A DNA stretch of 64,000 nt. It comes from a virus. This document shows positions 48,373 through 61,153 of the stretch, piece by piece. Where the stretch lies: the IMG/VR virus record IMGVR_UViG_3300017975_000002. One strand, written 5' to 3'. The notes below the pieces were generated by a model that worked only from the letters and a program-made list of their open reading frames with translations, was not told the DNA's origin and searched no databases. Within the stretch, counting starts at the first letter, position 1. Each line of letters begins with the position of its first letter. Made by a program: the position numbers and the translations under genes.

Positions 48373-48741
48373 ATGAAGCAGATCCTGTTTCTCGACGACG
48401 ACCACGAGCGTCATCACACATTCCGCGCACGTACGAAAGCACTCGGCTATCACGATCGCTTTCAGATCGTGCAGGTCTTTACGTCAGCAGACGCAATCCA
48501 GCATCTACGTGACCGTGCAGGCACGATCGAGCAGGTTTTCCTCGATCACGATTTGAGCTGCGACGACGTAGGCATGAAGGTCGTAGATCACATCTGTACG
48601 ATGCAGACGCCTCCGCCCATCGTAACGGTGCATAGTGTGAATGACGTCCGCTCCGTCGAGATGTGCACGCGGCTTGCGGAACTACGCACGATCCTTGTGC
48701 AACGCGTGCCGTTCCCGCAACTCATAGAGCAAATGCGCTAG
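48373..48741 (+). CDS. stand-alone response-regulator receiver (REC/CheY-like) domain
   Basis: 'ILFLDDD' acidic pocket, 'VFLDHDLSCDDVGMKVVDHI' phospho-acceptor region, 'IVTVHS' and 'RVPFP' (K-to-R variant). Confidence 0.55.
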   Translation: MKQILFLDDDHERHHTFRARTKALGYHDRFQIVQVFTSADAIQHLRDRAGTIEQVFLDHDLSCDDVGMKVVDHICTMQTPPPIVTVHSVNDVRSVEMCTRLAELRTILVQRVPFPQLIEQMR

Positions 48742-48996
48742 CTAACGATCGCTCTCGCGATCAGTCAGTAATCGCGCCAGCGACTGTTGCCAAGGCGCTC
48801 GCGACTTGATAGCGTGCGGTCGCTTTGACTTGTGGCGGTGACTTCCCGAACGGGTCGACGTCGAGCCGCACGACGAGGTTTGGCCACGTGCGGTCACCAT
48901 CTGCCTGATGAGTGAATTCATCTAACATTTCAAAGCTTTACGTTCGACTGTCAGAGCTTCATGCGAGAACCTTCAGCACAAACGGAGAGCCACAAC

Positions 48997-51393
48997 ATGA
49001 GCAAGAAGATCGACGCTGAGTCCTACGAGATCGAAAAGGGCCTGTACTTGGTTGCGCAGACCATCAGCCACGGAGACCCAAACAAAAAGAAGGCCGTTGA
49101 AACACCGACAAACCACATTGCGTGCATTGACGTCTCCGGCAGCATGACAAGCGACCTGCCGAAGATTCGCGAGCAGCTCAAGAAGAAACTCCCGAAGCTG
49201 CTCAAGGAAGACGACACACTCTCGATGGTTTGGTTCTCGGGCCGCGGTGAATATGGCGCGTTGTTCGAGGCCGAGCCAGTGAGCACGCTCGCGGACCTCA
49301 ACGACGTCAACAAGTGCATCGATCGTTGGCTCAAACCGATCGGGCTCACCGGTTTCAAGGAGCCGCTTCAGGAAGTCGAGAAGTTGGTCCAGCGCATCAG
49401 CAAAAAGAACAAGAACCCGTTTGCACTGTTCTTCATGTCAGACGGCTGCGACAACCAGTGGAACCGCGCTGACATCCTCAAGGTCGTCGAGCAGACCGCG
49501 GGCGGTCTTGTATCGTCAACCTTCGTCGAATACGGGTACTACGCGGACCGCATGCTCCTCTCAGCGATGGCCGAGAAAGCTGGCGGTACGCTGATCTTCG
49601 CCGAGGCGTTCGACAAGTACGAGCCGGTATTCGAAGCTGCAATGCAAAAGCGTCCCGTAGGTGGCAAGCGCATTGAAGTCGATGTCGGCGGTGACCCTAT
49701 CGGCGGATTCGCTTGGACAATGGAAGGCCAAGGCTACGCCGTTGGCAAACAGAACGATGACGGTTCTCGACCGCTCACGCGTCCATCTACGGACGGTGAC
49801 TTGGTTACGTACAACGTGAGCACAGGCAAGGCTATCGTCCCGGAGTTCACGCAGCAGCTCTACTATCTATCGCCAACGCCTGTCGGCGTTGTTGGCTCGA
49901 CACTCTCTGACCAAAGCGAGAAGTTCGCCAAAGGCGCAATGATATGCGCAATCAGCCCAGCCCATGCTGCGCTTTCGCTGTTCGCAGTACGCATGAAGCC
50001 AGAGATCGTCTACCCGATTCTCAAAGCGCTCGGTGATGTCGCCTTCATCGAACGGTTCAGCATCTGCTTCGGTAAGCAGAAGTACAGCGAGTTTATGGAC
50101 GCGGCGAAGCTTGCGGCCTTCGACGAAGGCCAACGCTTCACCAAGGGCCGTGATCCCAAGAAGGTTCCAGCCGACGATGCGTTCACCGTTCTCGATCTAC
50201 TAAGGCTTCTGGCTGAAGACGAAAGCGCGCGACTTCTACTCGATCATCCCGAGTTCAAGTACTCGCGTGTGTCGCGCAAGCGTGTCGATGCTGACGAGAA
50301 CCTGTCAGCTGACGAACAGCTGCAGATTGAAACAATCCGTAGTCAGATGGCCGGTGAGAAGTCGGTCAAGAAGCTCAAGGAGTATCAAGCCGAGATCGAC
50401 AAGATCCTTGCTTCCAAGAAGGAAGCACTCAAGTTCATAGCCGACTCGGCGCCTGACGGTTACGCGATCTCGAATCTAACGTACAACGAGTGCCGGCCCA
50501 ACATCAGCGTACTCGTGAAGAAGGCTGGTCATGTGGATCTGTCATCACGGCCTGACCACAAGAAGTACAAGATCCCGACGGACTTCGAGACGCATGTCTG
50601 GCGCAATTACACCATCGTCTGCGACGGCCTCGTGAACGTCGAGAAGCTGCCGGTTACTATTTCCGAGGCTACGTGGAAAGCGCTGCAAACTGCGGGCGTG
50701 CAGGCAGAAGCGCAACCAGGCGCTGGCAAGAACGGCGTTGGCATCGTCGTCATCGACCTCAAGCCGCTGCCCATCATCAATCGCGAGATGGTGAAGGCCG
50801 TCAGTGCCAAGTCGAGCATCGAGCTAGAGTGGGCACTCTTGAAATCGCGTGCTGCACAGAAGGTCTACAAGCACTACCAGAACGAGCTGTTTCCAGGCGT
50901 CAAGCTCAAGAGCCTAGCTGACCTCTACGGTAAGGACGGCGCCGAATGGCTCAAGGAGCAAGGCATCACGTACAACGGTTTCTCACCAAAGACGGTCCAG
51001 GCTGAAAGCAAAGACTTCATCATCGGTAAAGAGCTGGAGATCAAGCTCAAGGGCTGCAGCAAGCTCGATTCGGTGAAAGCCGTGAAAGAGAAAACGGGCA
51101 AGAAGAATCCGTGCGATGTTCTCATGTCCGATGCCATCGACGCAGTGGAGAGTTACCTCAAGAAGAACCCAAAAAACCTCCACGAGAAATGGCTAACCGG
51201 CAAGACAGACACAGCCACTGCCGAGACGCGTGGTTTGATCTACCAGACCGCTCAAACCCGCTTCGCTATCATCGTCGGACAGGTCTGGTTTCAGGAGTTT
51301 GGATCTCTCGACGAGAACACGCTGAAGGTGAACGTCGACGGTCAAGAGATCACCGGCATCGCCGAGCTTCGCGAGGTCGAGATCAAGATTTGA
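48997..51393 (+). CDS. large protein with N-terminal vWA (MIDAS) domain
   Basis: ATG with RBS ggagag (ORF 48961 trimmed). 'HIACIDVSGSM...FFMSDGCDN'; ~600 aa of unassigned C-terminal sequence. Confidence 0.75.
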   Translation: MSKKIDAESYEIEKGLYLVAQTISHGDPNKKKAVETPTNHIACIDVSGSMTSDLPKIREQLKKKLPKLLKEDDTLSMVWFSGRGEYGALFEAEPVSTLADLNDVNKCIDRWLKPIGLTGFKEPLQEVEKLVQRISKKNKNPFALFFMSDGCDNQWNRADILKVVEQTAGGLVSSTFVEYGYYADRMLLSAMAEKAGGTLIFAEAFDKYEPVFEAAMQKRPVGGKRIEVDVGGDPIGGFAWTMEGQGYAVGKQNDDGSRPLTRPSTDGDLVTYNVSTGKAIVPEFTQQLYYLSPTPVGVVGSTLSDQSEKFAKGAMICAISPAHAALSLFAVRMKPEIVYPILKALGDVAFIERFSICFGKQKYSEFMDAAKLAAFDEGQRFTKGRDPKKVPADDAFTVLDLLRLLAEDESARLLLDHPEFKYSRVSRKRVDADENLSADEQLQIETIRSQMAGEKSVKKLKEYQAEIDKILASKKEALKFIADSAPDGYAISNLTYNECRPNISVLVKKAGHVDLSSRPDHKKYKIPTDFETHVWRNYTIVCDGLVNVEKLPVTISEATWKALQTAGVQAEAQPGAGKNGVGIVVIDLKPLPIINREMVKAVSAKSSIELEWALLKSRAAQKVYKHYQNELFPGVKLKSLADLYGKDGAEWLKEQGITYNGFSPKTVQAESKDFIIGKELEIKLKGCSKLDSVKAVKEKTGKKNPCDVLMSDAIDAVESYLKKNPKNLHEKWLTGKTDTATAETRGLIYQTAQTRFAIIVGQVWFQEFGSLDENTLKVNVDGQEITGIAELREVEIKI

Positions 51394-52414
51394 ACCGGCT
51401 CCGCAGAGCATCCTCGACGATTCTGTCAATGGTGGAGCATTCGGCGCGCCAGTCTAAGCGACTGGCCGCCAGCTCAACACCAGCAACCAGAATCGCTGGA
51501 TCGCCTTCGCGTCTTGGCCCTAAGATCTTTGGCACCTGTTGACCGGTGACGCGCTCTATAGCTGTGAGTACTTGGAGGATAGAGTAGCCATGACCGGTGC
51601 CAAGATTGACGGCGCCTACGGATTCGCCGCGTGTGAGTACGTCGATTGCGACAAAATGCGCACGCGCGAGATCCCAAACATGAACGTAGTCGCGGATGCA
51701 CGTGCCATCTGGTGTCTTGTAGTCATCACCGAACACCGTGAGTGGCGGCCGTCGACCCAGTGCCGCATCGATCGCTAGCGGTATGAGGTGCGTCTCTGGC
51801 TCGTGGTTCTCGCGAAGCCAGCCATCGGGATGCGCACCAGCTGCATTGAAGTAGCGTAGCGCGGCCCATGGTAGGCCATAGGCGCGGCCATATGCTTCAA
51901 GCGCAAACTCGAAAGCGAGCTTGGTAGCGCCGTAAGGATTGATCGGCATGCATGCTGCGCTCTCTTCAAGCGGTGCCCTCTTGTAATCCGACCAAGGCGA
52001 AATGCCGTAGACCGCGGCCGACGATGAGAACACGAAGGGAATCTTGCGATCTGCGGCCATCTTGAGCAGCGGTAAGGCGCGAGTGACGTTGACATCGAAA
52101 TAGATTTCTGGATTCGTGATCGATTCGCCAACGCAGATCTTTCCAGCGAAGTGGACGACGGCGGTGATGCGATAGTCCGTGAATATGCGCGTGAGTAAGG
52201 TGCGGTCGCCGACGTCATCACGCATAAACATATGAAGGAATCCACTTCCCGCAGAGCGTGACCATTTGCTCCATTGCGCGTGATCGTGGGTCTTGCTGCC
52301 GCTCAGGTCGTCAATCACGACTACGTTGCGTCCGATTTCTACTGCACGGCGCACGAAGTGTGAGCCAATGAAACCGGCACCGCCGGTAACTAGGATGCAA
52401 CTTTGTGCGTCCAT
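51383..52414 (-). CDS. galE: UDP-glucose 4-epimerase-like NAD-dependent epimerase
   Basis: 'ILVTGGAGFIGSH', 'YGATK' and 'RDYVHVWD' are extended-SDR/GalE motifs; start at 'MDAQSCILVTGG'. Confidence 0.8.
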   Translation of the reverse strand: MDAQSCILVTGGAGFIGSHFVRRAVEIGRNVVVIDDLSGSKTHDHAQWSKWSRSAGSGFLHMFMRDDVGDRTLLTRIFTDYRITAVVHFAGKICVGESITNPEIYFDVNVTRALPLLKMAADRKIPFVFSSSAAVYGISPWSDYKRAPLEESAACMPINPYGATKLAFEFALEAYGRAYGLPWAALRYFNAAGAHPDGWLRENHEPETHLIPLAIDAALGRRPPLTVFGDDYKTPDGTCIRDYVHVWDLARAHFVAIDVLTRGESVGAVNLGTGHGYSILQVLTAIERVTGQQVPKILGPRREGDPAILVAGVELAASRLDWRAECSTIDRIVEDALRSRFKS

Positions 52415-52704
52415 GACGATCTCCTCGCGTCTAACCATCGATCTAGATAACGCGATAGGTTCATCGTGAGACGACGAATCTCAGCGCGCTTCGCTGCTCG
52501 ACGATGTTTGATCCGGATCACCGGCGGTGTGAAATCAATCGGCCCCTGAGGTCCAGGTCGGCATTCAGGGCAATCATTGATCCAGTCATGTACGACGCCG
52601 AGCAGCTCTTTGCGACTAGCGCCGCAGCGAGGGCAAGGCGGCAACGCGTAGGCATCACAGCACTCGCAACCGTCATGATAGTTGCGATGACCGCACGCTC
52701 TCAT
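52390..52704 (-). CDS. Cys-rich hypothetical protein
   Basis: 104-aa ORF. Confidence 0.35.
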   Translation of the reverse strand: MRACGHRNYHDGCECCDAYALPPCPRCGASRKELLGVVHDWINDCPECRPGPQGPIDFTPPVIRIKHRRAAKRAEIRRLTMNLSRYLDRWLDARRSSWTHKVAS

Positions 52705-53300
52705 GGCGCTATCTCAGTATCGAACTGCGAAACGATCCGCGGCACTACGGCATAGGTTTTGACGTGCGGATAGACTTCGCGTACGAGCTGGATATCGATC
52801 GGCGCCCAACATTTTCGCAAGGTCTTTAGGCAGAACGGCGCAATGCTCCGACGCATCACGTACGCATGCGTGCACATCATGTCTTTTGCTTCGTAAACTG
52901 AGCCAGCAATGTGCGTCATCGGCCGCCCTTGCAGACAGCCGTGACCAAGGTGCAGGAAATCGTAATCAGGCGGTACGTCGCGTAGTGCTTGCGCGAAGTC
53001 GTGCATGAATCCGTCATGCAACTGTGCGTCGTCTTCGAGCACAAGGTAGGCGTCGTCGGTCATTCTGGTTATCGTGTTCCACAACATGTACTGCGAGAGC
53101 CAGTTTCCCGTAGATTTAGGGCCCATGCGGAAGCCCATGTTCGGGTGGTCGACTTCGTATGGATGCCAAGTCGCGAGGCCTGCGACCGGAGCGTTCAGAC
53201 CCCAGAAGAACTCGACGTCGAGACCGTGCGACGCGAAGTGCGCCTTGGCACGCTCCATCCTCGCGGGATGTTCAGGTAAGCAGATGCAAATCGCGCGCAC
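52701..53300 (-). CDS. glycosyltransferase family 25 (LPS/LOS-type), copy 1
   Basis: 'RAICICLPEHPARMERAKAHFASHGL...EFFWGLNA' is GT25-like; GTG start by analogy with copy 2 (ORF start 53342 also possible). Confidence 0.65.
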   Translation of the reverse strand: MRAICICLPEHPARMERAKAHFASHGLDVEFFWGLNAPVAGLATWHPYEVDHPNMGFRMGPKSTGNWLSQYMLWNTITRMTDDAYLVLEDDAQLHDGFMHDFAQALRDVPPDYDFLHLGHGCLQGRPMTHIAGSVYEAKDMMCTHAYVMRRSIAPFCLKTLRKCWAPIDIQLVREVYPHVKTYAVVPRIVSQFDTEIAP

Positions 53301-53317
53301 GCTGCCAAATGTGCGGA

Positions 53318-53671
53318 TCACTTCGGCCTCCTCTCGCGCCACTCTTTCTCGATCGCCAGGTGCGTCCTCTCCAGGCGATCTTTGAGTGACAGCCTCTCGC
53401 CTGGGCGTGGCCTGACCGTGTACACGCCACTCGGGGATCGCACGACCTGCACGAAGGTCCCCAGCGACCGGGCTGCGAGAGTGGCGTCGACGTCATTCGG
53501 CACGGCGATGCGCAGACGGCCCCTGCCGCTGACGCGGCGAATGATCCAGGTGCTGATCATCCTGCCGTCGATCTCGCACTGCGGACCTGGACCAACGAGG
53601 ACGCCCTCGGCGTAGTGGCCGGGCGGGATCTCGTAGCCGGCAAGGTCGGCGGTCACTTTTGCTCCTCGCAC
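53318..53671 (-). CDS. hypothetical protein
   Basis: 117-aa ORF between the GT25 copies. Confidence 0.3.
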   Translation of the reverse strand: MRGAKVTADLAGYEIPPGHYAEGVLVGPGPQCEIDGRMISTWIIRRVSGRGRLRIAVPNDVDATLAARSLGTFVQVVRSPSGVYTVRPRPGERLSLKDRLERTHLAIEKEWRERRPK

Positions 53672-53672
53672 C

Positions 53673-54308
53673 TCACGGCGGTATCACTGTATCGAATTGC
53701 GAGATGATCCGCGGCATGACCACGTACACTTTGACGTTGGGGAACACCTCGCGCGAGAGCTGGATATCGACCGGTGCCCAGCACTTGCGCAGGGTCCGTA
53801 GACAGTACGGTACGATGGTTCGGCGTATCACGTACGCGTGCGTGCACATTACAGACTTGATGGGTCCGTACGCGTCGTTCGTGGTGTGAACCTCGTAGAC
53901 ATCACCTTTGACGTGCGTCATCGGCACGTGTTGCATGCAGCAGTGCCCGACGTACAGGAACGCATAGTCGGACGGCACGTCGTGCAAGGCCTGTTCGAAC
54001 TTTTGTGCGAAGCCTTCGTGTAGCTCGGCATCATCTTCCAGTACGAGATAGGCGTCGTCTGGCATGCGCGTCATTGCGTTCCAGACCATGTAGTGGCCCA
54101 GCCAGCAGCCTGTTGGCTTGGCGCCCATGCGGAAGCCGCAACCAGGGTGATCGATCTCGTAGGTGTGCCACGTCGCGAGACCCGCTACCGGTGCATTGAT
54201 ACCTGTGAAAAAGTCGACGTCAGTGAGGCCATGCGATTCGAAGTGACTCTTGGCCTTCTCGATTCTCGCGGGAGCTTCTGGCAAGCAGATGCAAATCGCT
54301 TTCATTCG
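53673..54308 (-). CDS. glycosyltransferase family 25, copy 2
   Basis: 'MKAICICLPEAPARIEKAKSHFESHGL'; ~65% identical to copy 1, including the upstream leader sequence. Confidence 0.7.
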   Translation of the reverse strand, partial: RMKAICICLPEAPARIEKAKSHFESHGLTDVDFFTGINAPVAGLATWHTYEIDHPGCGFRMGAKPTGCWLGHYMVWNAMTRMPDDAYLVLEDDAELHEGFAQKFEQALHDVPSDYAFLYVGHCCMQHVPMTHVKGDVYEVHTTNDAYGPIKSVMCTHAYVIRRTIVPYCLRTLRKCWAPVDIQLSREVFPNVKVYVVMPRIISQFDTVIPP

Positions 54309-54526
54309 CGACTCTTTTTGTACATAGGATGCACTGCCAGCTTGTTGAGCCACCCTTCGAGCGTCGTATATGCACCGACGATGCGCCAATGCTCATCGTT
54401 AGAGATGATGCCGTGATCATGATGCGCTTCCCAGGTCACTTCTCTCAGTTCATTGAGAGCTGCCTGAGCGCGCGCTAGCATGTCGTAGCGGCGAGCGCGC
54501 GCCAGCTTATCGTAGTCGTCTCCCAT
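54302..54526 (-). CDS. hypothetical protein
   Basis: ORF 54302..54652 trimmed to an ATG. Confidence 0.3.
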   Translation of the reverse strand: MGDDYDKLARARRYDMLARAQAALNELREVTWEAHHDHGIISNDEHWRIVGAYTTLEGWLNKLAVHPMYKKSRE

Positions 54527-54528
54527 CG

Positions 54529-55632
54529 CTAACTCCTGATCGGGCGAAGGCTGCCAATCCAACGCATGCGATCTTCGGTCTCGACGTGGCGCGAGCGTAC
54601 CAGCGCGTACGCGTCCTCCATTGTCCGCTCGCCCGTCCACGCCAAATACCATGCGATAGCAAGCGGCGAGCGCTCGTGTGCTTGCACACAGTGCACGAGT
54701 ACTTTCTTGCCCGCGGCGAGCTGTGCATGGATGACCTTAGCCATGCGATCGAGCATGGTGTTATCCGCTGTCCCGCTCAGCATGAACGGAAACTCCATCG
54801 CACCGTTAGGTTCGTTGGGCAGTTCCTCACCGCGCCCGTACTTGGCACGGTACTCGGTGACTGAGATACAGCACCAGTCTGCAGGAACGTCAGCACCCAG
54901 TGCCGTTGCGGCTTCCCGTGTGCCGACGAAAAGGTTGGGTTGGATCTCGGTGCGATGTGTCTTGTACTCCGCAAGCGCGCGATCAGCGAGCGCCGTCGCG
55001 CCGTCGATTACGCTGCGGATGAATTCGTGATCCATGCGCGTAGTTGGTGAACCGGGTGTCGCAGCGGGCTTGCGCACCACACCGCAGTGCCCGTAGTTGC
55101 GTGGCGTCAGGTTGTAGCGCTTACAGAACCGCTCCCATGCACCGTGGATCGGGCTACCCCAGGTCGTGTCGTCGCTCATGATGAGGCCGCCACCGCGAAC
55201 AAAGTGCCAAGCAACTTCGTATTCGAACGTCTGGCACCACACCTCGTGATCGGAATCGTGGAGGAAAATGTCCCACGGGCCCGTGTGCTCGTAGATGAAG
55301 GGCAGCGCCTCAGTCGATAGCTGCTTGAGCTTGCTCCATCTAGGGTGACTGACCTCGAAGACGCCGGCTGGTGGATTCGGATCGACGGAATAGAGCAGGC
55401 CACGCTCCTGTATGCCGATTTCATCGAGGGTGGCTAGGATCCGATCACTCGATATGCCGTATGACACGCCGGTCTCGACGACGATCCTCGGCGACCCGCC
55501 GCCGTCGTTGCGCTCACCAAGCAGGATCTCCCGTAGGTAGTCCTGGTAATGGTTAGGTGCGGTGTAGTGCCTCGCGTATTGTTCAGCGAGTTCGGGATTC
55601 TGCTCGCGCATCGCAGTCAAAAGTCCGGCCAT
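54529..55632 (-). CDS. fusion of a class-I methyltransferase-like domain and a CX5R dual-specificity phosphatase
   Basis: The N-terminus 'PRIVVETGVSYGISS...WDIFLHDSDHE' is Methyltransf_24/CmcI-like. The C-terminus 'KKVLVHCVQAHERSPLAIAWYLA' is a cysteine-phosphatase P-loop. Confidence 0.6.
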   Translation of the reverse strand: MAGLLTAMREQNPELAEQYARHYTAPNHYQDYLREILLGERNDGGGSPRIVVETGVSYGISSDRILATLDEIGIQERGLLYSVDPNPPAGVFEVSHPRWSKLKQLSTEALPFIYEHTGPWDIFLHDSDHEVWCQTFEYEVAWHFVRGGGLIMSDDTTWGSPIHGAWERFCKRYNLTPRNYGHCGVVRKPAATPGSPTTRMDHEFIRSVIDGATALADRALAEYKTHRTEIQPNLFVGTREAATALGADVPADWCCISVTEYRAKYGRGEELPNEPNGAMEFPFMLSGTADNTMLDRMAKVIHAQLAAGKKVLVHCVQAHERSPLAIAWYLAWTGERTMEDAYALVRSRHVETEDRMRWIGSLRPIRS

Positions 55633-55641
55633 CGCTACCTC

Positions 55642-56373
55642 CTACTGTCCAAACGGAGTAGTAAATTTTTCTTCGCCAGGAGGCCCGCCCCACTTCGCAG
55701 TGTAGCGATCGCGGTTGGCTACCCAGCGCGATTGAAACCATGCCGCTTTCTCGCCGGTCCAGCCTTGGTACCCAGCTTCTTCTAAGCGCCAGCCATGTGT
55801 AATGCCCGTGCTGTACGTAGCGCGTCCGAAGGACGGTCGTGAAACCTCAACGACTGGCCACTCGCTGACAGGTACACTTGCGATGTTGAGTCGCCGCCGG
55901 TAATCCGTGTCCTCGAAGTAGACTGGATAGTACTCCTCGTCGAAGCGACCAACGTGCTCCCAGATCGTACGATCGAAGCGGAAGCATTCCCAACCGTGCG
56001 CCAAGACGATCTCTGAAGGCTCGGCGAGCATCTTCTCGAATGTGTCCGGCGCGACAGCGCAATCGCTATTGAGCAAGATGGCCGAAGAGTAATTCGCGTA
56101 ATCCCCTAGCGACAACGCCCGACCGCAAATCCAGTTCCATGCACCTGCACAGCCTGTATTCTTAGTGGACCGCGATAGCTCGACACGGAAGAGGTTGGAC
56201 AGCGCGACCAAGTCATCCACGGCGGACGTTCGCACGAGCGCATTGTCACCGTTGTCGACGATGATCAGATATTCCGGCTTGACGGAGCTGGCTACTATGG
56301 CAGCGAGCGTCTCACGAAAGATCCAATCCGGTTCGTTGCAGCGAGGAATGCCTAGGACGAATGGTCTAGTCAT
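55642..56373 (-). CDS. glycosyltransferase family 2-like
   Basis: 'FVLGIPRCNEPDW...EYLIIVDNGDN' and the 'YFEDTDY' DxD-like motif. Confidence 0.6.
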   Translation of the reverse strand: MTRPFVLGIPRCNEPDWIFRETLAAIVASSVKPEYLIIVDNGDNALVRTSAVDDLVALSNLFRVELSRSTKNTGCAGAWNWICGRALSLGDYANYSSAILLNSDCAVAPDTFEKMLAEPSEIVLAHGWECFRFDRTIWEHVGRFDEEYYPVYFEDTDYRRRLNIASVPVSEWPVVEVSRPSFGRATYSTGITHGWRLEEAGYQGWTGEKAAWFQSRWVANRDRYTAKWGGPPGEEKFTTPFGQ

Positions 56374-56633
56374 GGTTTGGCTTTCGAAATTACAATGAAT
56401 CCGCATTTTACTTTGTCTGTAGGTGGCGTCTGCCAATTGCGCCGATGGTAGCGCCTGACAATGCCGTTGCGTTCGCGTGCGATCGCGAGTGCTCGGCGTT
56501 TGCTCCGACAACGGAGTCCGCGTCGCTGACCATCGATTGTAGCGATCACGATCCAACGACCGCGCGAAGGCTGGCCAAAGATTCGTTCATACGTGTGCCA
56601 GATGCCCACGTCGAGATCGTCGAAGCTCTTCAT
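56370..56633 (-). CDS. hypothetical protein
   Basis: ATGA overlap; 87 aa. Confidence 0.3.
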   Translation of the reverse strand: MKSFDDLDVGIWHTYERIFGQPSRGRWIVIATIDGQRRGLRCRSKRRALAIARERNGIVRRYHRRNWQTPPTDKVKCGFIVISKAKP

Positions 56634-57088
56634 TAGCCAAGCTCCAAGTGTTTGCCAGGGGCATTCTCGAACGCCGCGAGCGCGCCCTTAAGGGCTTCTT
56701 CCTCGGATGCGCCGACTGGACTGTGCCACTGCGCGACGCGCCACAGTCCCTGCTCGAACACCGCGACGCGCCACTTTCCGAACGCTAGCTCAGTCGAGAT
56801 CCATACGGGCGGGATCGTGCCGAACATTCGCCAGAACGAGCTGTAGCAGCGCCCGTCGGCCATACGGCGCCTGACCACCTTGGCGATCGCCAGCTCCAGC
56901 TCAGTGAACGTAGTCTGGCTCGGGTGCGTGCTGTCTTTGACATCTGGCCCGAGCGGCTCGGCCTTGGCGTGCAGCCTGAACGCTTCACCCGAGTCGATCA
57001 CATTGCTCGGCGGCGTCCAACCGCAAGAGCAACTGAGCACGCGATAAGCCAAGCCATTGGGGTCGCTTTTAGGCTTGTGCTCGATCAC
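56633..57088 (-). CDS. hypothetical protein
   Basis: 151-aa ORF. Confidence 0.4.
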   Translation of the reverse strand: MIEHKPKSDPNGLAYRVLSCSCGWTPPSNVIDSGEAFRLHAKAEPLGPDVKDSTHPSQTTFTELELAIAKVVRRRMADGRCYSSFWRMFGTIPPVWISTELAFGKWRVAVFEQGLWRVAQWHSPVGASEEEALKGALAAFENAPGKHLELG

Positions 57089-58104
57089 ATGAGCCTCTCA
57101 CTCCACGCACGTGGAATTCTCTCATTCACGATTTCTAGTGGCAGGTGGTAGTCGAATCCACTGACGCCTCGCTGCCGGATCCATTCGATCGTCTCGGCGA
57201 GATTTTCGTCGAGTCCGACGCGCGATTCATAACCGAGTTGCCGACGCGCCTTCTCGGCGCTGCACAACGCCACCTTCACCTCGGCTGGCCGATCTGGCAA
57301 GTAGATCGGATCGAGGTCGAAATCCAGCAGTCCCGCGATTCGCCGCGCAAGTTCGTTGATCGTCACCTCTCCGTGGTCGGGTCCGATGTTGATGACCTGC
57401 CCACGGCAGTCGTCACGCGTACCGATCTCACAGATTGGATCCACGACGTCTCGCACCGACGAGAAACAGCGCCGCTGTTGACCATCACCGTAGATGATCG
57501 GTTGCTTGCCGAGCAGCATCCGGTGGATGAAGATCGACGCGACGTTTCTGAAAGGATCTGTGTACCGAGCGCGAGGGCCCGTGACGTTGTGGGGCACGAC
57601 GATCGCGTACTCGGTGCCGTGAATCTCGGCGAGATTCGCGAGCAGCTGCTCGGCGCACACCTTACCGATTCCGTATGGGTCCACGGGCTGCGTCGGCCGA
57701 TCTTCGGTAAATCCTCTCCACCATGGCGGCGTCGGATCGGCCTTGCCATAGCGACTCATCGACGAGCAGAAGATGATCCTCCGCGCACCGCGCGCGATCG
57801 CGGCTGAGAACACGCCGGTCGACGCCGTCACGATCCCCTGCGTCACGAGGTGCGGCGAAAACACCGACAGGCCCTCGTACGGCAGCGCCGCGCAATGGTA
57901 AACGACCTCGCAACGATCGAGCGCCGCGTACATCGCGTCGAAGTCGTTGCAATCGGCATTGAGCCAGTTGATCCCGCTTGGGATGTTGTCCTCATAGCCG
58001 CCGATTAAATTGTCGACGCCGTAGACCTCGTCGCCGCGCGCAAGAAGTGCATCGGCTAGGTGACTGCCGATAAGGCCCGCGACGCCGGTAACGCAGACCT
58101 TCAT
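57085..58104 (-). CDS. NAD-dependent sugar-nucleotide epimerase/dehydratase (extended SDR)
   Basis: 'VCVTGVAGLIGSHL', 'YGIGK', 'CSSMSRYG'. Confidence 0.75.
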   Translation of the reverse strand: MKVCVTGVAGLIGSHLADALLARGDEVYGVDNLIGGYEDNIPSGINWLNADCNDFDAMYAALDRCEVVYHCAALPYEGLSVFSPHLVTQGIVTASTGVFSAAIARGARRIIFCSSMSRYGKADPTPPWWRGFTEDRPTQPVDPYGIGKVCAEQLLANLAEIHGTEYAIVVPHNVTGPRARYTDPFRNVASIFIHRMLLGKQPIIYGDGQQRRCFSSVRDVVDPICEIGTRDDCRGQVINIGPDHGEVTINELARRIAGLLDFDLDPIYLPDRPAEVKVALCSAEKARRQLGYESRVGLDENLAETIEWIRQRGVSGFDYHLPLEIVNERIPRAWSERLM

Positions 58105-58107
58105 TGC

Positions 58108-58749
58108 TCACGTCACCCGCTGCAGCACGCATCCAGTGCCAAGTGGGTACTTCTCGACGAATCCCATCGAAACTGCAAGGTCGCGTGCTTTCACAACAGA
58201 TCCGCCAGACCAGCCAATATCGTCCATGACAAGCGTCCCGCCACGAGCGATATACGGCGCGAAACGCTCGACGTCATGTATCGCAGCATCGCCGTGGTTC
58301 CCGTCGATGTGGCAGATACCGATTTCACCGTGAGATGCAACGAGTGCCTTTACGTCGACGTCTTCTGACCGTGAGCGCATAACGCGACAGATATTAGTAA
58401 GGCCATGCCAAGCGAGCCGCGCAGTGAACTTTCCGTACGCGTGATCGTGCATAGCCTGCTTACCCCACCACTCTACGTTTGCCGGATCGACTTGCCCTTC
58501 GATCGATGCCATAGCTGACCAGGAGTCGATCGCGACTCCAATACCGGCGCCAATATGTTTCAGCGCAAAGAGCTGTGGGATAAAACTGTCTCCAGTCCAT
58601 ACACCAATCTCGACGACGAGCTGCGGTCTTTGCGCGACGATCATCGAAGCAAGCGTTTGGCACTTCTCCAGAGATGTCCATGCCTGTGCTGATCTAGTCG
58701 CAGCAATGATCGCAAAGAGACTGGTGAGATCAGTTATTTCTTTGGCCAT
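58108..58749 (-). CDS. class I SAM-dependent methyltransferase (Methyltransf_24-like)
   Basis: 'VVEIGVWTGDS' and 'HIDGNHGDAA' motifs. Confidence 0.65.
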   Translation of the reverse strand: MAKEITDLTSLFAIIAATRSAQAWTSLEKCQTLASMIVAQRPQLVVEIGVWTGDSFIPQLFALKHIGAGIGVAIDSWSAMASIEGQVDPANVEWWGKQAMHDHAYGKFTARLAWHGLTNICRVMRSRSEDVDVKALVASHGEIGICHIDGNHGDAAIHDVERFAPYIARGGTLVMDDIGWSGGSVVKARDLAVSMGFVEKYPLGTGCVLQRVT

Positions 58750-58761
58750 GGTTGTTATGCC

Positions 58762-61005
58762 TCAGACCACATAGTCATCGCGCAAGCTTCGCATCACAGC
58801 GTCCACACCGAAAATAGCTAGGTTTGCACTGGAGTCGTTGACGCTATAGCTCGCGACAAGGTAGCTACCGCTTTTGTCGACTGCGAGACCTGCAGCGTAC
58901 TCAATGCCCTTCTTTTCGAAGTAGAACAGATCGGACATCTTGCGCGTCACGAAGTTGCTGTCTAGCCATACAAAGCGGTGCAGATACGTGCGAGATGCGT
59001 TTTTTGCATGGATTACATCGTGCACGAGGCACAAGTAACCGCCGCCAACAGGAACCAGCTGGGAGCCGCCGCGCAGGTGTGAGTTAGCGATAGGTAAGTC
59101 GCTCGACGCGTCGACAGTGCGCTTGCCGATGTCGAGCGCGATCATCGCGCATCGTGGCGTCAGTGCATACGCAATATGGACTCGTTGGTCAGATGTATTA
59201 GCGACCGGCATCCAGTTCTTTTGGTCATGCTCGGACCATCGTCCGCGAAGCGGTGTGGCACGAATGATCGAGTAATCATCTGCAAGTTCGCACAGAACGA
59301 TTTCGCGGAGGCCGTAGCGCTCCATGTTGAAGTCGCAGACTGTAGCTGTACAGTAGAATTTGTCTCCCGCGCGGAACAGTCGACAGTCTTCAAAGCCGTG
59401 CACTTTGAAGTCAGTACGCGGTGTCTCGTCGCGGTCGAGCATCGGTATCACACGCGCGAGCGTAAAGCCGGCGGCCGGATCACCGGCCAATTCGGTCATC
59501 ACATTGCGCGTGAAGATCGTGTCGTCTGGCGGAGTATATGAATGCCCGTTGACAATCTGGTAGTTCAACGTCCGTACAAGGCAGCGCCATTGATCGCTGC
59601 GTGCGTCGTAGTGAACACTTGGATTGGCGGCAACGAACGGTGCTTCTGGTGCGTATGGAATACGCCACGTTTTGGCGAGATAGCGTTCGTATGCTGAACC
59701 TACGTAACAGGATCGATTCGTTCGAATAAGTCCCTCTGGACCCCTACCACTGGCAAGTGCACGATCGGCGCCTGCTTTACCGACATGCCAGGCATCACCG
59801 CCTAGGTAATAGCCAGCGATAGAAACCAGGTGTGCGGCTTTCCATTCGTAAGCTTCACGCTCTACGAACAATGTCGCATTTGGCAGTGGCAGTTCCATTG
59901 CGCGACGTGCGAATAGAAACGTAAGCGGCAGGTTGTCATGCTTGTAGTAGTAGTGCTCGGCGATGGCAACCAGCGGTTCAGCACGCTTTGGATCGAACGT
60001 ATGCGCATCTAAATACGCTTGTTGGATTTCGGGCCACGGGCGATCGATGCGCGCCAACATGAGTGCTATGCGCATCGCTGCTTCGAACGTTTCTTCAGCC
60101 CAACCGCCGACGCGAACACGCTCGCGATAGTAAGTAATCGCTTCTTCAGTGCGCCCTAAGCAATCGTAAGTCTGCGCGAGATAGAACAGTGTACGCGGGT
60201 CCGTTGGCGCTTGTGCGCGGTCTGCCTCCAACAGAACAAGATCTCGCTCCCAGCGTGCACGAGTTGCTGCGAGACTTTTTTCAGAAGCCACTTTTGTTAC
60301 TTCAACGCTTGGTACACGAAGCTGGGCTGGCGGCGCGCCCGGTCGTCCGCAATATTCATGTACTCGGCCTCGGTAGCGCCAGCGACACTTCGCGCGCAGC
60401 AGGATTGGCAGGTAATACGTGCTGCTGCCGCGATGAATGCAGACGTCGTATGCCTCATGCACGATGCCTTCGCTTTTGGCATTGTCGATAACGTACGTGC
60501 GTAACGTTTCGCCGTGAACTAGACGATCATCACTATCTGGCATGATGGTGAACGTCGTGCGCAGTCCGTGAAGGTCGAGTGCGCGATTGCGGCTCGTTGA
60601 GAAGTCTACAAACGGTTCCTCGATGAGCTGACCTGGAATATTAGCGAGCACGCGCTTCACTACGTCCTGTGTACCATCCGTCGATCCTGTATCGAGGATC
60701 GTCCAGTAGTCGATGTAGGGACGAAATGATTCGAGCGTATCGGCAATGCCGTGCGCTTCGTTCTTGATGATCATCACGAGCCCGAGTAGTAACTCGGTCG
60801 CAGGCTCTGTCGGTGTTGACAGTTCTGATGAAGATGGCTTCTCCGGTACAGAAGACGCGCGCGTAACGATCTTTTCAGCCGGCTTGGTTAATTGGACACG
60901 TCCGGCTTGCTTCGTCTGCCGACGTGGTTTGGCTTGCTTGGCGCGTGCAGCTTTCATCACCATACTCTTCGGCATGCGATCGACTTCGCAGGAAGTCGCC
61001 ACCAC
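58762..61005 (-). CDS. GT2 glycosyltransferase–TPR–C-terminal domain protein
   Basis: 'LLGLVMIIKNEAHGIADTLESFRPYIDYWTILDTGSTDGT' (GT2, SunS-like) and TPR-like 'LFYLAQTYDCLGRTEEAITYY'; the start may be at an internal ATG (60966). Confidence 0.7.
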   Translation of the reverse strand: MVATSCEVDRMPKSMVMKAARAKQAKPRRQTKQAGRVQLTKPAEKIVTRASSVPEKPSSSELSTPTEPATELLLGLVMIIKNEAHGIADTLESFRPYIDYWTILDTGSTDGTQDVVKRVLANIPGQLIEEPFVDFSTSRNRALDLHGLRTTFTIMPDSDDRLVHGETLRTYVIDNAKSEGIVHEAYDVCIHRGSSTYYLPILLRAKCRWRYRGRVHEYCGRPGAPPAQLRVPSVEVTKVASEKSLAATRARWERDLVLLEADRAQAPTDPRTLFYLAQTYDCLGRTEEAITYYRERVRVGGWAEETFEAAMRIALMLARIDRPWPEIQQAYLDAHTFDPKRAEPLVAIAEHYYYKHDNLPLTFLFARRAMELPLPNATLFVEREAYEWKAAHLVSIAGYYLGGDAWHVGKAGADRALASGRGPEGLIRTNRSCYVGSAYERYLAKTWRIPYAPEAPFVAANPSVHYDARSDQWRCLVRTLNYQIVNGHSYTPPDDTIFTRNVMTELAGDPAAGFTLARVIPMLDRDETPRTDFKVHGFEDCRLFRAGDKFYCTATVCDFNMERYGLREIVLCELADDYSIIRATPLRGRWSEHDQKNWMPVANTSDQRVHIAYALTPRCAMIALDIGKRTVDASSDLPIANSHLRGGSQLVPVGGGYLCLVHDVIHAKNASRTYLHRFVWLDSNFVTRKMSDLFYFEKKGIEYAAGLAVDKSGSYLVASYSVNDSSANLAIFGVDAVMRSLRDDYVV

Positions 61006-61153
61006 AAGTCAACTGCACGCTATCAAGTCACGATCGACTTGGCAACAGTCCCAGGCGCGATCGCGCGCGCGTGGTTAGTCGAACTTGTCCAAAACGATCG
61101 CGCGAGCGATCACACGCACGTACGCGCGCCGCTCACAAAGACGCGCTGAAAAC
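61006..61153 (-). promoter_or_regulatory. intergenic region with hairpin and GATCGC..GCGATC palindromes
   Basis: cgacttc-gcag-gaagtcg hairpin, plus cgcgatcgcgcgcgcg and cgatcgcgcgagcgatc palindromes, between the tail-fibre-like gene and the glycosylation operon. Confidence 0.35.

Follow-up and report, generated by a model that had tools for sequence, protein, structure and literature searches.

The window analysed here, a stretch of 64,000 nucleotides (nt) from IMG/VR virus record IMGVR_UViG_3300017975_000002, belongs to a large uncultured soil phage with tailed-phage gene content and carries, between positions 61005 and 51383 on the minus strand, a glycan-biosynthesis cluster headed by a three-domain glycosyltransferase. 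The explanation that we favor, and to which we give roughly half of our confidence, is that, in the host cytoplasm, the enzymes of the cluster O-glycosylate surface or fibre proteins of the virion, the glycan being short, galactose-containing, and capped by methyl groups. The direct observations comprise the domain identities of the encoded enzymes, their catalytic motifs, the lack of membrane components, the conservation of the gene module in relatives, and its recurrent position beside fibre genes, while all functional statements are deduced from sequence, fold, and synteny. Phage-encoded glycosylation islands are of a known type; the composition of this module and the methyltransferase-phosphatase fusion that it contains are, as far as could be found, undescribed.

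All genes from 63849 down to 51383 lie on the minus strand and overlap, or are set apart, by only a few bases, and this co-directional block ends convergently against a gene encoding a VWA protein. An earlier note, made from the sequence alone, had counted ten genes in the cluster; 13 open reading frames (ORFs) are called in the interval, eight encoding enzymes and five being small orphan ORFs of 151, 87, 74, 112, and 104 amino acids (aa). The enzyme list of that note (GalE, two GT25 proteins, GT2, GT2-TPR, a short-chain dehydrogenase/reductase (SDR), and a methyltransferase), and with it the identification of a glycan-biosynthesis cluster in a phage, is confirmed by Pfam, PHROG, and NCBIfam domain assignments. 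The full roster includes the GT2-TPR protein, two unrelated Methyltransf_24 enzymes, the SDR, GT2, two GT25 enzymes, and a true GalE, arranged as follows.

58762..61005, minus strand: three-domain glycosyltransferase, 747 aa (731 aa if counted from the called start, about 60957)
58108..58749, minus strand: Methyltransf_24 protein no. 1, 213 aa (PF13578, 52.3 bits against a cut-off of 26.3)
57085..58104, minus strand: SDR-type nucleoside diphosphate (NDP)-sugar epimerase/reductase, 339 aa (Pfam Epimerase, 3e-43)
56633..57088, minus strand: small orphan ORF, 151 aa (a called gene of the ENA record)
56370..56633, minus strand: small basic orphan ORF, 87 aa, as called
55642..56373 (ORF 55642-56556), minus strand: GT2 glycosyltransferase, 243 aa from the ATG at 56373 (PF00535, 27 bits against 23.3)
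54529..55632, minus strand: Methyltransf_24-DSPc fusion, 367 aa (PF13578, 37.7 bits against 26.3; PF00782, 34.7 bits, a marginal pass of the threshold of 33.5)
54302..54526, minus strand: small orphan ORF, 74 aa, as called
53673..54305 (ORF 53673-54389), minus strand: GT25 copy b, 210 aa (PF01755, 52.4 bits against 24), with an EDD motif
53318..53656, minus strand: small orphan ORF, 112 aa as called
52701..53321 (ORF 52701-53342), minus strand: GT25 copy a, 206 aa as called (PF01755, 38.4 bits against 24)
52390..52704, minus strand: small Cys-rich orphan ORF, 104 aa, 8 Cys, as called
51383..52414 (ORF 51383-52438), minus strand: UDP-glucose 4-epimerase GalE, 343 aa as called (Pfam Epimerase, 1e-50)

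The 747-aa enzyme begins with a disordered segment (residues 1-68), followed by a GT-A domain of the GT2 family with DTGSTDGT and DSDD motifs (residues ~74-240), a TPR-like helical domain (~242-442), and a β-propeller resembling GH130 and GT108 enzymes (~445-747); the AlphaFold model, built from an alignment of 28 sequences, reached a pLDDT of 86.9 and a pTM of 0.81. Pfam TPR matches are present in the ORF, and PHROG 13126 ('beta-1,4-glycosyltransferase') spans the N-terminal half. Profile comparison of this half with the PDB returned SunS (2e-18), GmaR (6e-14), and ThuS (1e-11), and comparison by fold (Foldseek) returned ThuS/SunS (~1e-14), peptide and protein glycosyltransferases being the only matches of any strength. 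With its GT-A domain directly followed by a TPR-like helical domain, and with those enzymes as its best matches, the GT2-TPR half belongs to the SunS/ThuS/GmaR branch of GT2. The SunS family is also the only NCBIfam match (TIGR04195, 21.7 bits against an equivalog cut-off of 350), and, judged by sequence, the N-terminal half is homologous to SunS yet not a SunS equivalog. SunS and ThuS are S-glycosyltransferases of glycocins and GmaR is a flagellin O-GlcNAc transferase; the characterized members of this branch act on peptides or proteins.

By fold, the C-terminal propeller is closest to GH130 β-mannoside phosphorylases (Foldseek, ~1e-9) and the GT108 mannosyltransferase/phosphorylases (MPTs) of Leishmania (~4e-7), while Pfam Glyco_hydro_130 gave no match to the 747-aa protein at an E-value of 0.01 or better. 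The propeller contains an invariant HGFEDCRLF motif, within which E539-D540-x-R542 is invariant in the 28 aligned sequences. In a PDB profile search this motif was placed on GIEDARV of the GH130 enzyme Lin0857 in a non-significant alignment (E 0.79), which suggests that E-D-x-R occupies the place of the GH130 catalytic Asp.

The GT2-TPR-GH130-like architecture is, as far as could be found, undescribed, and the family that shares it exceeds 1,200 members, all uncharacterized, many of which carry additional domains, namely FkbM or RfbT-type methyltransferases, HtrL_YibB, or GT25. Family members occur on large phage contigs and on contigs binned as giant-virus metagenome-assembled genomes (MAGs), the latter carrying homologs of both the GT2-TPR half and the propeller. 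Bacterial homologs (29-35% identity) come from MAGs, mostly of Burkholderiales, and their loci contain no other module gene except GalE in one case (L010); ORF calls in the high-GC loci L012 and L017 were too noisy for annotation. A separate observation concerns contig L024 (10001-14917), where a 1202-aa protein unites GT25, an FkbM methyltransferase, and the GT2-TPR-GH130-like unit, preceded by two stand-alone GH130-like paralogs and followed by two 2-oxoglutarate (2OG)-Fe(II) oxygenase genes.

The remaining enzymes would supply, extend, and cap a glycan. GalE clears its NCBIfam equivalog cut-off (TIGR01179, 341 bits against 262.3) and probably supplies the GT25 enzymes with UDP-galactose. 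The 339-aa SDR has the YxxxK motif, is missing the TDE dehydratase motif, is 22% identical to GalE, and falls under every NCBIfam cut-off, its top match being LegB-like (108 bits). The 243-aa GT2 matches PHROG 29879 ('galactosyl transferase', 3.8e-16) and has orthologs of 50-58% identity in all relatives. Methyltransf_24 no. 1, a putative sugar O-methyltransferase, has orthologs of 67-76% identity in three related contigs (L002, L006, and L025), and it shares with the methyltransferase domain of the fusion only the Pfam family, without significant pairwise similarity. PDB sequence searches with the small GT2 and with methyltransferase no. 1 returned nothing useful. Within the cluster, no priming polyprenyl-phosphate transferase, flippase, polymerase, or ABC transporter is encoded, and no protein has a hydrophobic 19-residue window resembling a membrane span, the maximal Kyte-Doolittle mean (≤1.62) corresponding to the Rossmann motif of the SDR.

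The five small ORFs are interleaved among the enzyme genes, have homologs in no related module, and look like lineage-specific insertions. The 151-aa ORF has no Pfam or PHROG match and is missing from relatives, the 87-aa ORF shares sequence with the stop of the preceding gene and directly borders the start of the following one, and the eight Cys residues of the 104-aa ORF are set in CxxC-like pairs.

The fusion of a Methyltransf_24 enzyme with a CX5R phosphatase, proposed in the earlier note, is real and rare. A single ORF encodes both Pfam domains, namely the second Methyltransf_24 domain of the cluster (residues 1-~224) and a dual-specificity phosphatase (DSP) domain (~228-367) whose P-loop, VLVHCVQAHERS (HCX5R-S), is intact and conserved across the family. 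A frameshift artefact, which would have undone that proposal, is ruled out, as the JGI and ENA assemblies give the same protein and two diverged fusion orthologs exist, P0002 (66% identity) and P0003 (57%); one fusion ortholog, in L006, also lies in the same gene order (Methyltransf_24, SDR, GT2, fusion). Among the best 150 entries of an exhaustive HMMER search of 1.84 billion representatives, one, representing a single 50%-identity cluster, has both domains, and the others match only residues up to ~228 or from ~225.

In relatives, the methyltransferase is mostly a separate protein of 226-231 aa (71-81% identical). The gene order in L025 is Methyltransf_24, GT25, DSP (153 aa), GT25, GT25, and its DSP is 67% identical to the domain in the window. 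The simplest history of the fusion is loss of the intervening GT25 gene and of a stop codon. Since the separate in-cluster DSP of L025 is the closest one, and given this simplest history, the phosphatase is a resident of the glycan module in one sub-lineage. Stand-alone DSP homologs (54-59% identical) are found in unrelated small-gene regions of other large contigs and have a C-terminal extension that the cluster-resident DSPs do not, the HCX5R(S) loop being kept in all of them.

The two GT25 copies are 64% identical in protein sequence, in agreement with the value of ~65% given in the earlier note, and both contain LVLEDDA. The conserved upstream leaders and the internal segmental duplication also reported there did not withstand comparison: the sequences upstream of the two copies do not align, DNA similarity extends from the codons for AICICLPE to the stop codon and is limited to the GT25 coding sequence, and the small ORFs after the two copies are not related to each other. 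Each copy is 78% identical to the single ortholog in L002 and 70% identical to its partner (aligned columns), and the two are not sisters in a neighbor-joining tree, which was built without bootstrap and is indicative only. A recent tandem duplication is ruled out by the copy identities, the tree, and the restriction of similarity to coding sequence. Copy number varies from one (L002, L003, L055, and L056) through two (window) to three (L025); because of this variation, and because the copies are closer to the L002 ortholog than to each other, the sequences indicate recurrent gain, loss, or exchange of one gene. Among solved structures, Mimivirus R655 (3.5e-5) and procollagen galactosyltransferase 1 (~0.02) come nearest, both belonging to protein-glycosylation settings; this comparison is biased by the fact that the PDB holds no structures of bacterial lipooligosaccharide (LOS) GT25 enzymes.

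The core of the cluster, comprising GT2-TPR, Methyltransf_24, in some cases SDR, GT2, Methyltransf_24, and GT25, is conserved in order in L002, L003/4/5, L006, L025, L055, L056, and one further contig. The relatives' contigs that carry it reach 160, 179, and 259 kb and have genes for endonuclease VII, GH25 lysins, and tail fibres aboard. Parts of the module are also joined into single proteins, as Methyltransf_24 with GT25 (P0016) or GT25 with FkbM and GT2-TPR-GH130 (P0221).

In four of the five relatives with flanking sequence, the module adjoins genes for tail-fibre-like proteins that are non-homologous to one another. The flank of L025 (12789-15286, minus strand) encodes Gly-rich proteins of 482 and 350 aa (phrog_863, 2.7e-43 and 6e-29), that of L002 (199-1755, plus strand) a 518-aa protein (phrog_863, 4e-9), that of L003 (3419-4783, minus strand) a 454-aa protein with collagen-like GPT/GPA repeats (phrog_8745, 1e-6), and that of L055 (4017-9969) a 1380-aa protein (phrog_17587, 1e-36) together with a 512-aa protein; in L056 the fibre-type neighborhood is weaker. 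Where sequenced, the fibre-like neighbors in L025, L002, and L003 contain 21-28% glycine. Collagen-like GPT/GPA-type sequence is O-glycosylated in Bacillus BclA. The association of the cluster with fibre genes claimed in the earlier note is thus borne out at the level of the module, with PHROG-recognizable fibre genes in L025, L002, L003/L004, and L055.

Other features of these surroundings were also recorded. The distance of the module from a contig end is ~0-16 kb in the window and in each of the five relatives whose coordinates are known (L002, L004, L025, L055, and L056), which may reflect assembly breaks at variable fibre genes or nearness to genome termini. Tyrosine-integrase genes are located 3-10 kb from the module in L025 (2872-3798), L055 (19232-20263), and the 23-kb contig of P0116, and hint that the phages are temperate or that the region is mobile. 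In L006, a nucleotidyltransferase/HepT-like toxin-antitoxin pair of the MNT-HEPN type (2286-3156) lies beside a GH25 endolysin gene.

In the window itself, the cluster is preceded in the co-directional block by the following features.

63256..63849, minus strand: Ser/Thr-rich protein, 197 aa, first gene of the block
62600..63253, minus strand: Laminin_G_3/concanavalin-like protein, 217 aa (Pfam, 7e-10; phrog_8510 'virion structural protein', 5e-6)
61154..62491, minus strand: Ser/Thr-rich protein, 445 aa as called, modeled by AlphaFold as jelly-roll/TNF-C1q-like β-sandwiches
61099..61116, minus strand: terminator-like hairpin with a T-run behind it, separating the 445-aa jelly-roll gene from the cluster

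These three proteins contain 21-23% Ser+Thr, compared with 7-13% in the cluster proteins. The fold of the 445-aa protein resembles capsid turret and cement proteins, BclA-type tips, and fibre-tip domains, and a homolog in another viral contig again adjoins a phrog_8510-like protein. Jelly-roll/TNF-C1q-like folds are typical of virion-surface proteins. The modeled structure makes the 445-aa protein a candidate component of the virion surface, one that may accept the glycan. The description of these neighbors in the earlier note as Ser/Thr-rich and LamG-containing was accurate, and its label 'tail-fibre-like' for 61154-63849 was not sustained: a tblastn search with the 461-aa and 197-aa neighbors found no match in GenBank phages, the window neighbors are not homologous to the fibre proteins of the relatives, and the window has no homolog of the Gly-rich fibre proteins. 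The fibre association is therefore real for the module and suggestive for the window's own neighboring genes.

From these data we infer what is glycosylated and with which sugars, in what order the steps run, and what the phosphatase does, as follows. GalE would convert host UDP-glucose to UDP-galactose, and the second SDR would supply another epimerized sugar nucleotide. The SunS/GmaR-like GT2 domain of the 747-aa enzyme may place the first sugar on Ser/Thr (or Cys) of a target held by its TPR-like domain, whereupon the propeller of the same enzyme, the 243-aa GT2, and one to three GT25 enzymes would extend the chain with hexoses, probably a β-mannoside and galactose. The two unrelated Methyltransf_24 enzymes would then O-methylate the sugars. 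In the least certain step, the DSP domain may take phosphate off the glycan, a sugar-phosphate intermediate, or the acceptor protein. Because the cluster encodes no membrane components, such a pathway needs a cytoplasmic acceptor or a lipid-linked acceptor provided by the host.

Glycosylation of the phage's own virion proteins is favored because the enzyme set includes a SunS/GmaR-type glycosyltransferase with a TPR domain, lies in a fibre neighborhood, and occurs in fusions of glycosyltransferases with each other and with a methyltransferase, and because of the GT25 match to R655 and collagen galactosyltransferase together with the chlorovirus precedent described below. The glycoproteins of phage XacN1 provide another precedent (PMC5852040). 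A collagen-type route linked through hydroxylysine or hydroxyproline was also considered and is unsupported in the window, where neither a 2OG-oxygenase or lysyl/prolyl hydroxylase gene nor a homolog of the Gly-rich fibre proteins was found.

Several points weigh against virion glycosylation. Bacterial GT25 enzymes are best known for galactosylation of the LOS/lipopolysaccharide (LPS) core, and since they are soluble or peripheral, the membrane-free gene set is compatible with a LOS/LPS route as well; the bias of the PDB comparison noted above belongs here too. Fibre genes and envelope-modifying genes could share one hypervariable host-interaction region. Next to the cluster, the 197-, 217-, and 445-aa neighbors have no homologs beside the module in relatives, so that they were not co-inherited with it, and the hairpin at 61099..61116 splits them from the cluster, only its position being suggestive because such hairpins are no commoner in the region than in shuffled sequence. 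Most homologs of the DSP domain are found in unrelated regions of early-type genes, and its link with the glycan may therefore be incidental. Finally, distant GT2-TPR homologs in IMG/VR stand alone, without other module genes.

Of the competing explanations, modification of the host envelope is the most serious, and we consider it possible but less likely than virion glycosylation. The hexoses and methyl groups would be added at the cytoplasmic face to the LPS/LOS core, O-antigen, exopolysaccharide, S-layer, or flagellin, during infection or lysogeny, changing the receptor, blocking superinfection, and stopping the loss of progeny on debris. Bacterial members of GT25 are LOS/LPS glycosyltransferases according to the Pfam family description, the PHROG class of the glycosyltransferase matches is 'moron, auxiliary metabolic gene and host takeover', and GmaR itself acts on a host-cell protein, flagellin. 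Phage clusters of glycosyltransferases, epimerases, and O-methyltransferases have been read as a means of diversifying outer polysaccharides (PMC7824862, PMC12801897), and a GT25 copy number of one to three is what would be expected of a diversifying surface antigen. The nearby integrase genes of three relatives (L025, L055, and the 23-kb contig) also speak for this reading, and variable sugar islands near fibre genes are also expected from receptor masking. However, the cluster encodes no priming transferase, flippase, polymerase, or transporter and no acyl- or Gtr-type membrane protein, its largest and most conserved enzyme is of the peptide/protein-glycosyltransferase type with a TPR domain, and the position beside fibre genes recurs. 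Homologs also occur on giant-virus MAG contigs, that is, in viruses of hosts without LPS, binning errors being possible.

Hypermodification of DNA, in which a methylated oligosaccharide would be attached to hydroxymethylated phage bases to evade restriction and CRISPR, seems to us improbable by a wide measure. Phage glycosyltransferases of the GT-A and GT-B types, together with sugar epimerases, do place mono- and disaccharides on 5-hydroxymethylcytosine (bioRxiv 10.1101/2023.12.21.572611), the VWA protein next to the cluster is closest among deposited phages to that of Shewanella phage Thanatos, which has pentosylated cytosine, and a dCTP-deaminase-like gene is present at 6415-7014 (plus strand). 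On the other hand, the scanned ORFs of the window and the surroundings of the module in relatives yielded no hydroxymethylase, thymidylate-synthase-like, or TET/JBP-type gene, an absence that is no proof because the contig represents an incomplete genome. Fibre genes and not replication genes accompany the module, its GT2-TPR protein is SunS-like and unlike the JGT or TarP folds of DNA-modifying GT-A enzymes (bioRxiv 10.1101/2023.12.21.572611), and eight enzymes far exceed the needs of known DNA glycans.

Scarcely credible is a glycocin-type product, in which the SunS-like enzyme would S- or O-glycosylate a small Cys-rich peptide such as that of the 104-aa ORF, in the manner of sublancin (a glycopeptide of prophage SPbeta): SunS and ThuS are the best structural and profile matches, the Cys-rich ORF lies inside the cluster, and SunS is itself prophage-encoded according to its PDB entry name, but the cluster lacks a SunT-type export/peptidase ABC transporter and thiol-disulfide oxidoreductases, no relative that keeps the enzyme has the Cys-rich ORF, the SunS equivalog model scores 21.7 bits against a cut-off of 350, and the GH130-like domain, GT25, GT2, and the methyltransferases have no counterpart in glycocin clusters.

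Among known systems, the closest functional parallel to virion glycosylation by this cluster is offered by mycobacteriophages Che8, Corndog, and Myrna, which carry glycans on capsid and tail-tube proteins (Freeman et al. 2023, as cited in PMC12619734 and PMC12801897). They are likewise tailed phages whose soluble glycosyltransferases, with or without methyltransferases, are thought or shown to build cytoplasmic O-glycans on their own structural proteins; they differ in host group and genome size, and their acceptors are capsid and tail-tube proteins, whereas fibre or surface proteins are only suspected here. The likeness is functional only; the enzyme set of the window includes the SunS-like GT2-TPR-GH130-like protein, GT25, Methyltransf_24, and DSP. 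Chlorovirus PBCV-1 uses soluble viral glycosyltransferases and two methyltransferases that methylate a terminal rhamnose (PMC9614988). More generally, giant viruses (PBCV-1 A064R/A061L and Mimivirus R655/R699/L230; PMC9614988, PMC9546862) share with the window soluble and multi-domain glycosyltransferases, two methyltransferases, and NDP-sugar enzymes, but belong to another realm with other hosts, and the glycans of PBCV-1 are N-linked and made by glycosyltransferase families not matched here.

At the level of single enzymes, SunS/ThuS and GmaR are homologous to the window enzyme in the GT-A and helical repeat domains, with conserved DxD-type motifs; the window enzyme differs in its extra C-terminal GH130-like domain and in having no precursor, export genes, or MogR-type partner. 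Its propeller shares with GH130 and GT108 enzymes the five-bladed fold and an E-D-x-R motif at the apparent position of the GH130 catalytic Asp, and differs in matching the GH130 family by no sequence search and in being fused behind GT2-TPR. The GtrABC/Oac serotype-conversion systems and O-antigen clusters are similarly phage-borne sugar genes that vary between relatives and could alter a surface antigen. However, these systems need integral membrane proteins, namely the GtrA flippase, the bactoprenol glycosyltransferase GtrB, GtrC, and Wzx/Wzy or ABC transporters, none of which is present in the cluster.

Glycosylated phage virions have been shown in few cases, mainly in mycobacteriophages, and the sugar clusters of large phages are mostly labeled, by default, as genes for LPS or the cell wall. 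The conserved, portable module described here and its family of more than 1,200 three-domain enzymes look built for protein glycosylation, and the module travels with fibre genes. Taking this further, we tentatively propose, as a possibility that we rate well short of probable, that a previously undescribed virion-glycosylation machinery is widespread in large soil phages and possibly in giant viruses, in which one three-domain enzyme would start O-glycans on tail-fibre or surface proteins and also lengthen them, a changing complement of GT25, GT2, and two methyltransferases would diversify them, and in one lineage the DSP, drawn into the cluster and fused to a methyltransferase, would serve as a glycan or acceptor phosphatase. 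Fibre glycosylation would then be a heritable, fast-evolving host-range or anti-recognition trait outside the actinobacteriophages. If the favored explanation is confirmed, virion glycosylation would extend to large soil phages, for which the module would provide a metagenome marker. It would also offer new enzymes for glyco-engineering, namely a peptide glycosyltransferase fused to a phosphorylase-type transferase and a methyltransferase-phosphatase fusion. If the cluster instead acts on host glycans, it would represent one more receptor-masking island.

The window covers nearly all of a 64.4-kb metagenomic contig, and the same sequence was assembled independently from an ENA sample (L001, 47 kb). 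A megablast search of the cluster against 50,697 deposited phage records gave no match. The VWA gene (48961-51393, plus strand) meets GalE tail-to-tail with an 11-nt overlap and encodes an 810-aa protein (phrog_2426) with ~34% identity to proteins of phages of ~155-175 kb, including Shewanella phage Thanatos, Serratia and Klebsiella phages, and others; a second large VWA-domain protein is encoded at 3248-5113 (plus strand). A PHROG scan of 20 other ORFs of the window detected no structural genes and only nucleotide and RNA-repair functions.

An RNase H gene accompanies the dCTP-deaminase-like gene mentioned above. At 24925-27144 (plus strand) a 739-aa fusion joins a PhoH-like N-terminal half to an RtcB RNA ligase, and a separate cREC receiver-type domain for cyclic-phosphate processing is encoded at 48373-48741 (plus strand), the two together suggesting an RNA-repair set. 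The dCTP-deaminase-like gene, an ADP-ribosylglycohydrolase gene (30685-31617, plus strand), and a gene for an R2K-clade ATP-grasp protein (428-1357, minus strand) look auxiliary or conflict-related. An 894-aa ORF (16535-19219, plus strand) has no PHROG match and contains a Major Vault Protein shoulder domain (PF11978, 4.6e-24) and a Vault_3 repeat (5.7e-10), a Major Vault Protein-like protein being unusual on a phage contig.

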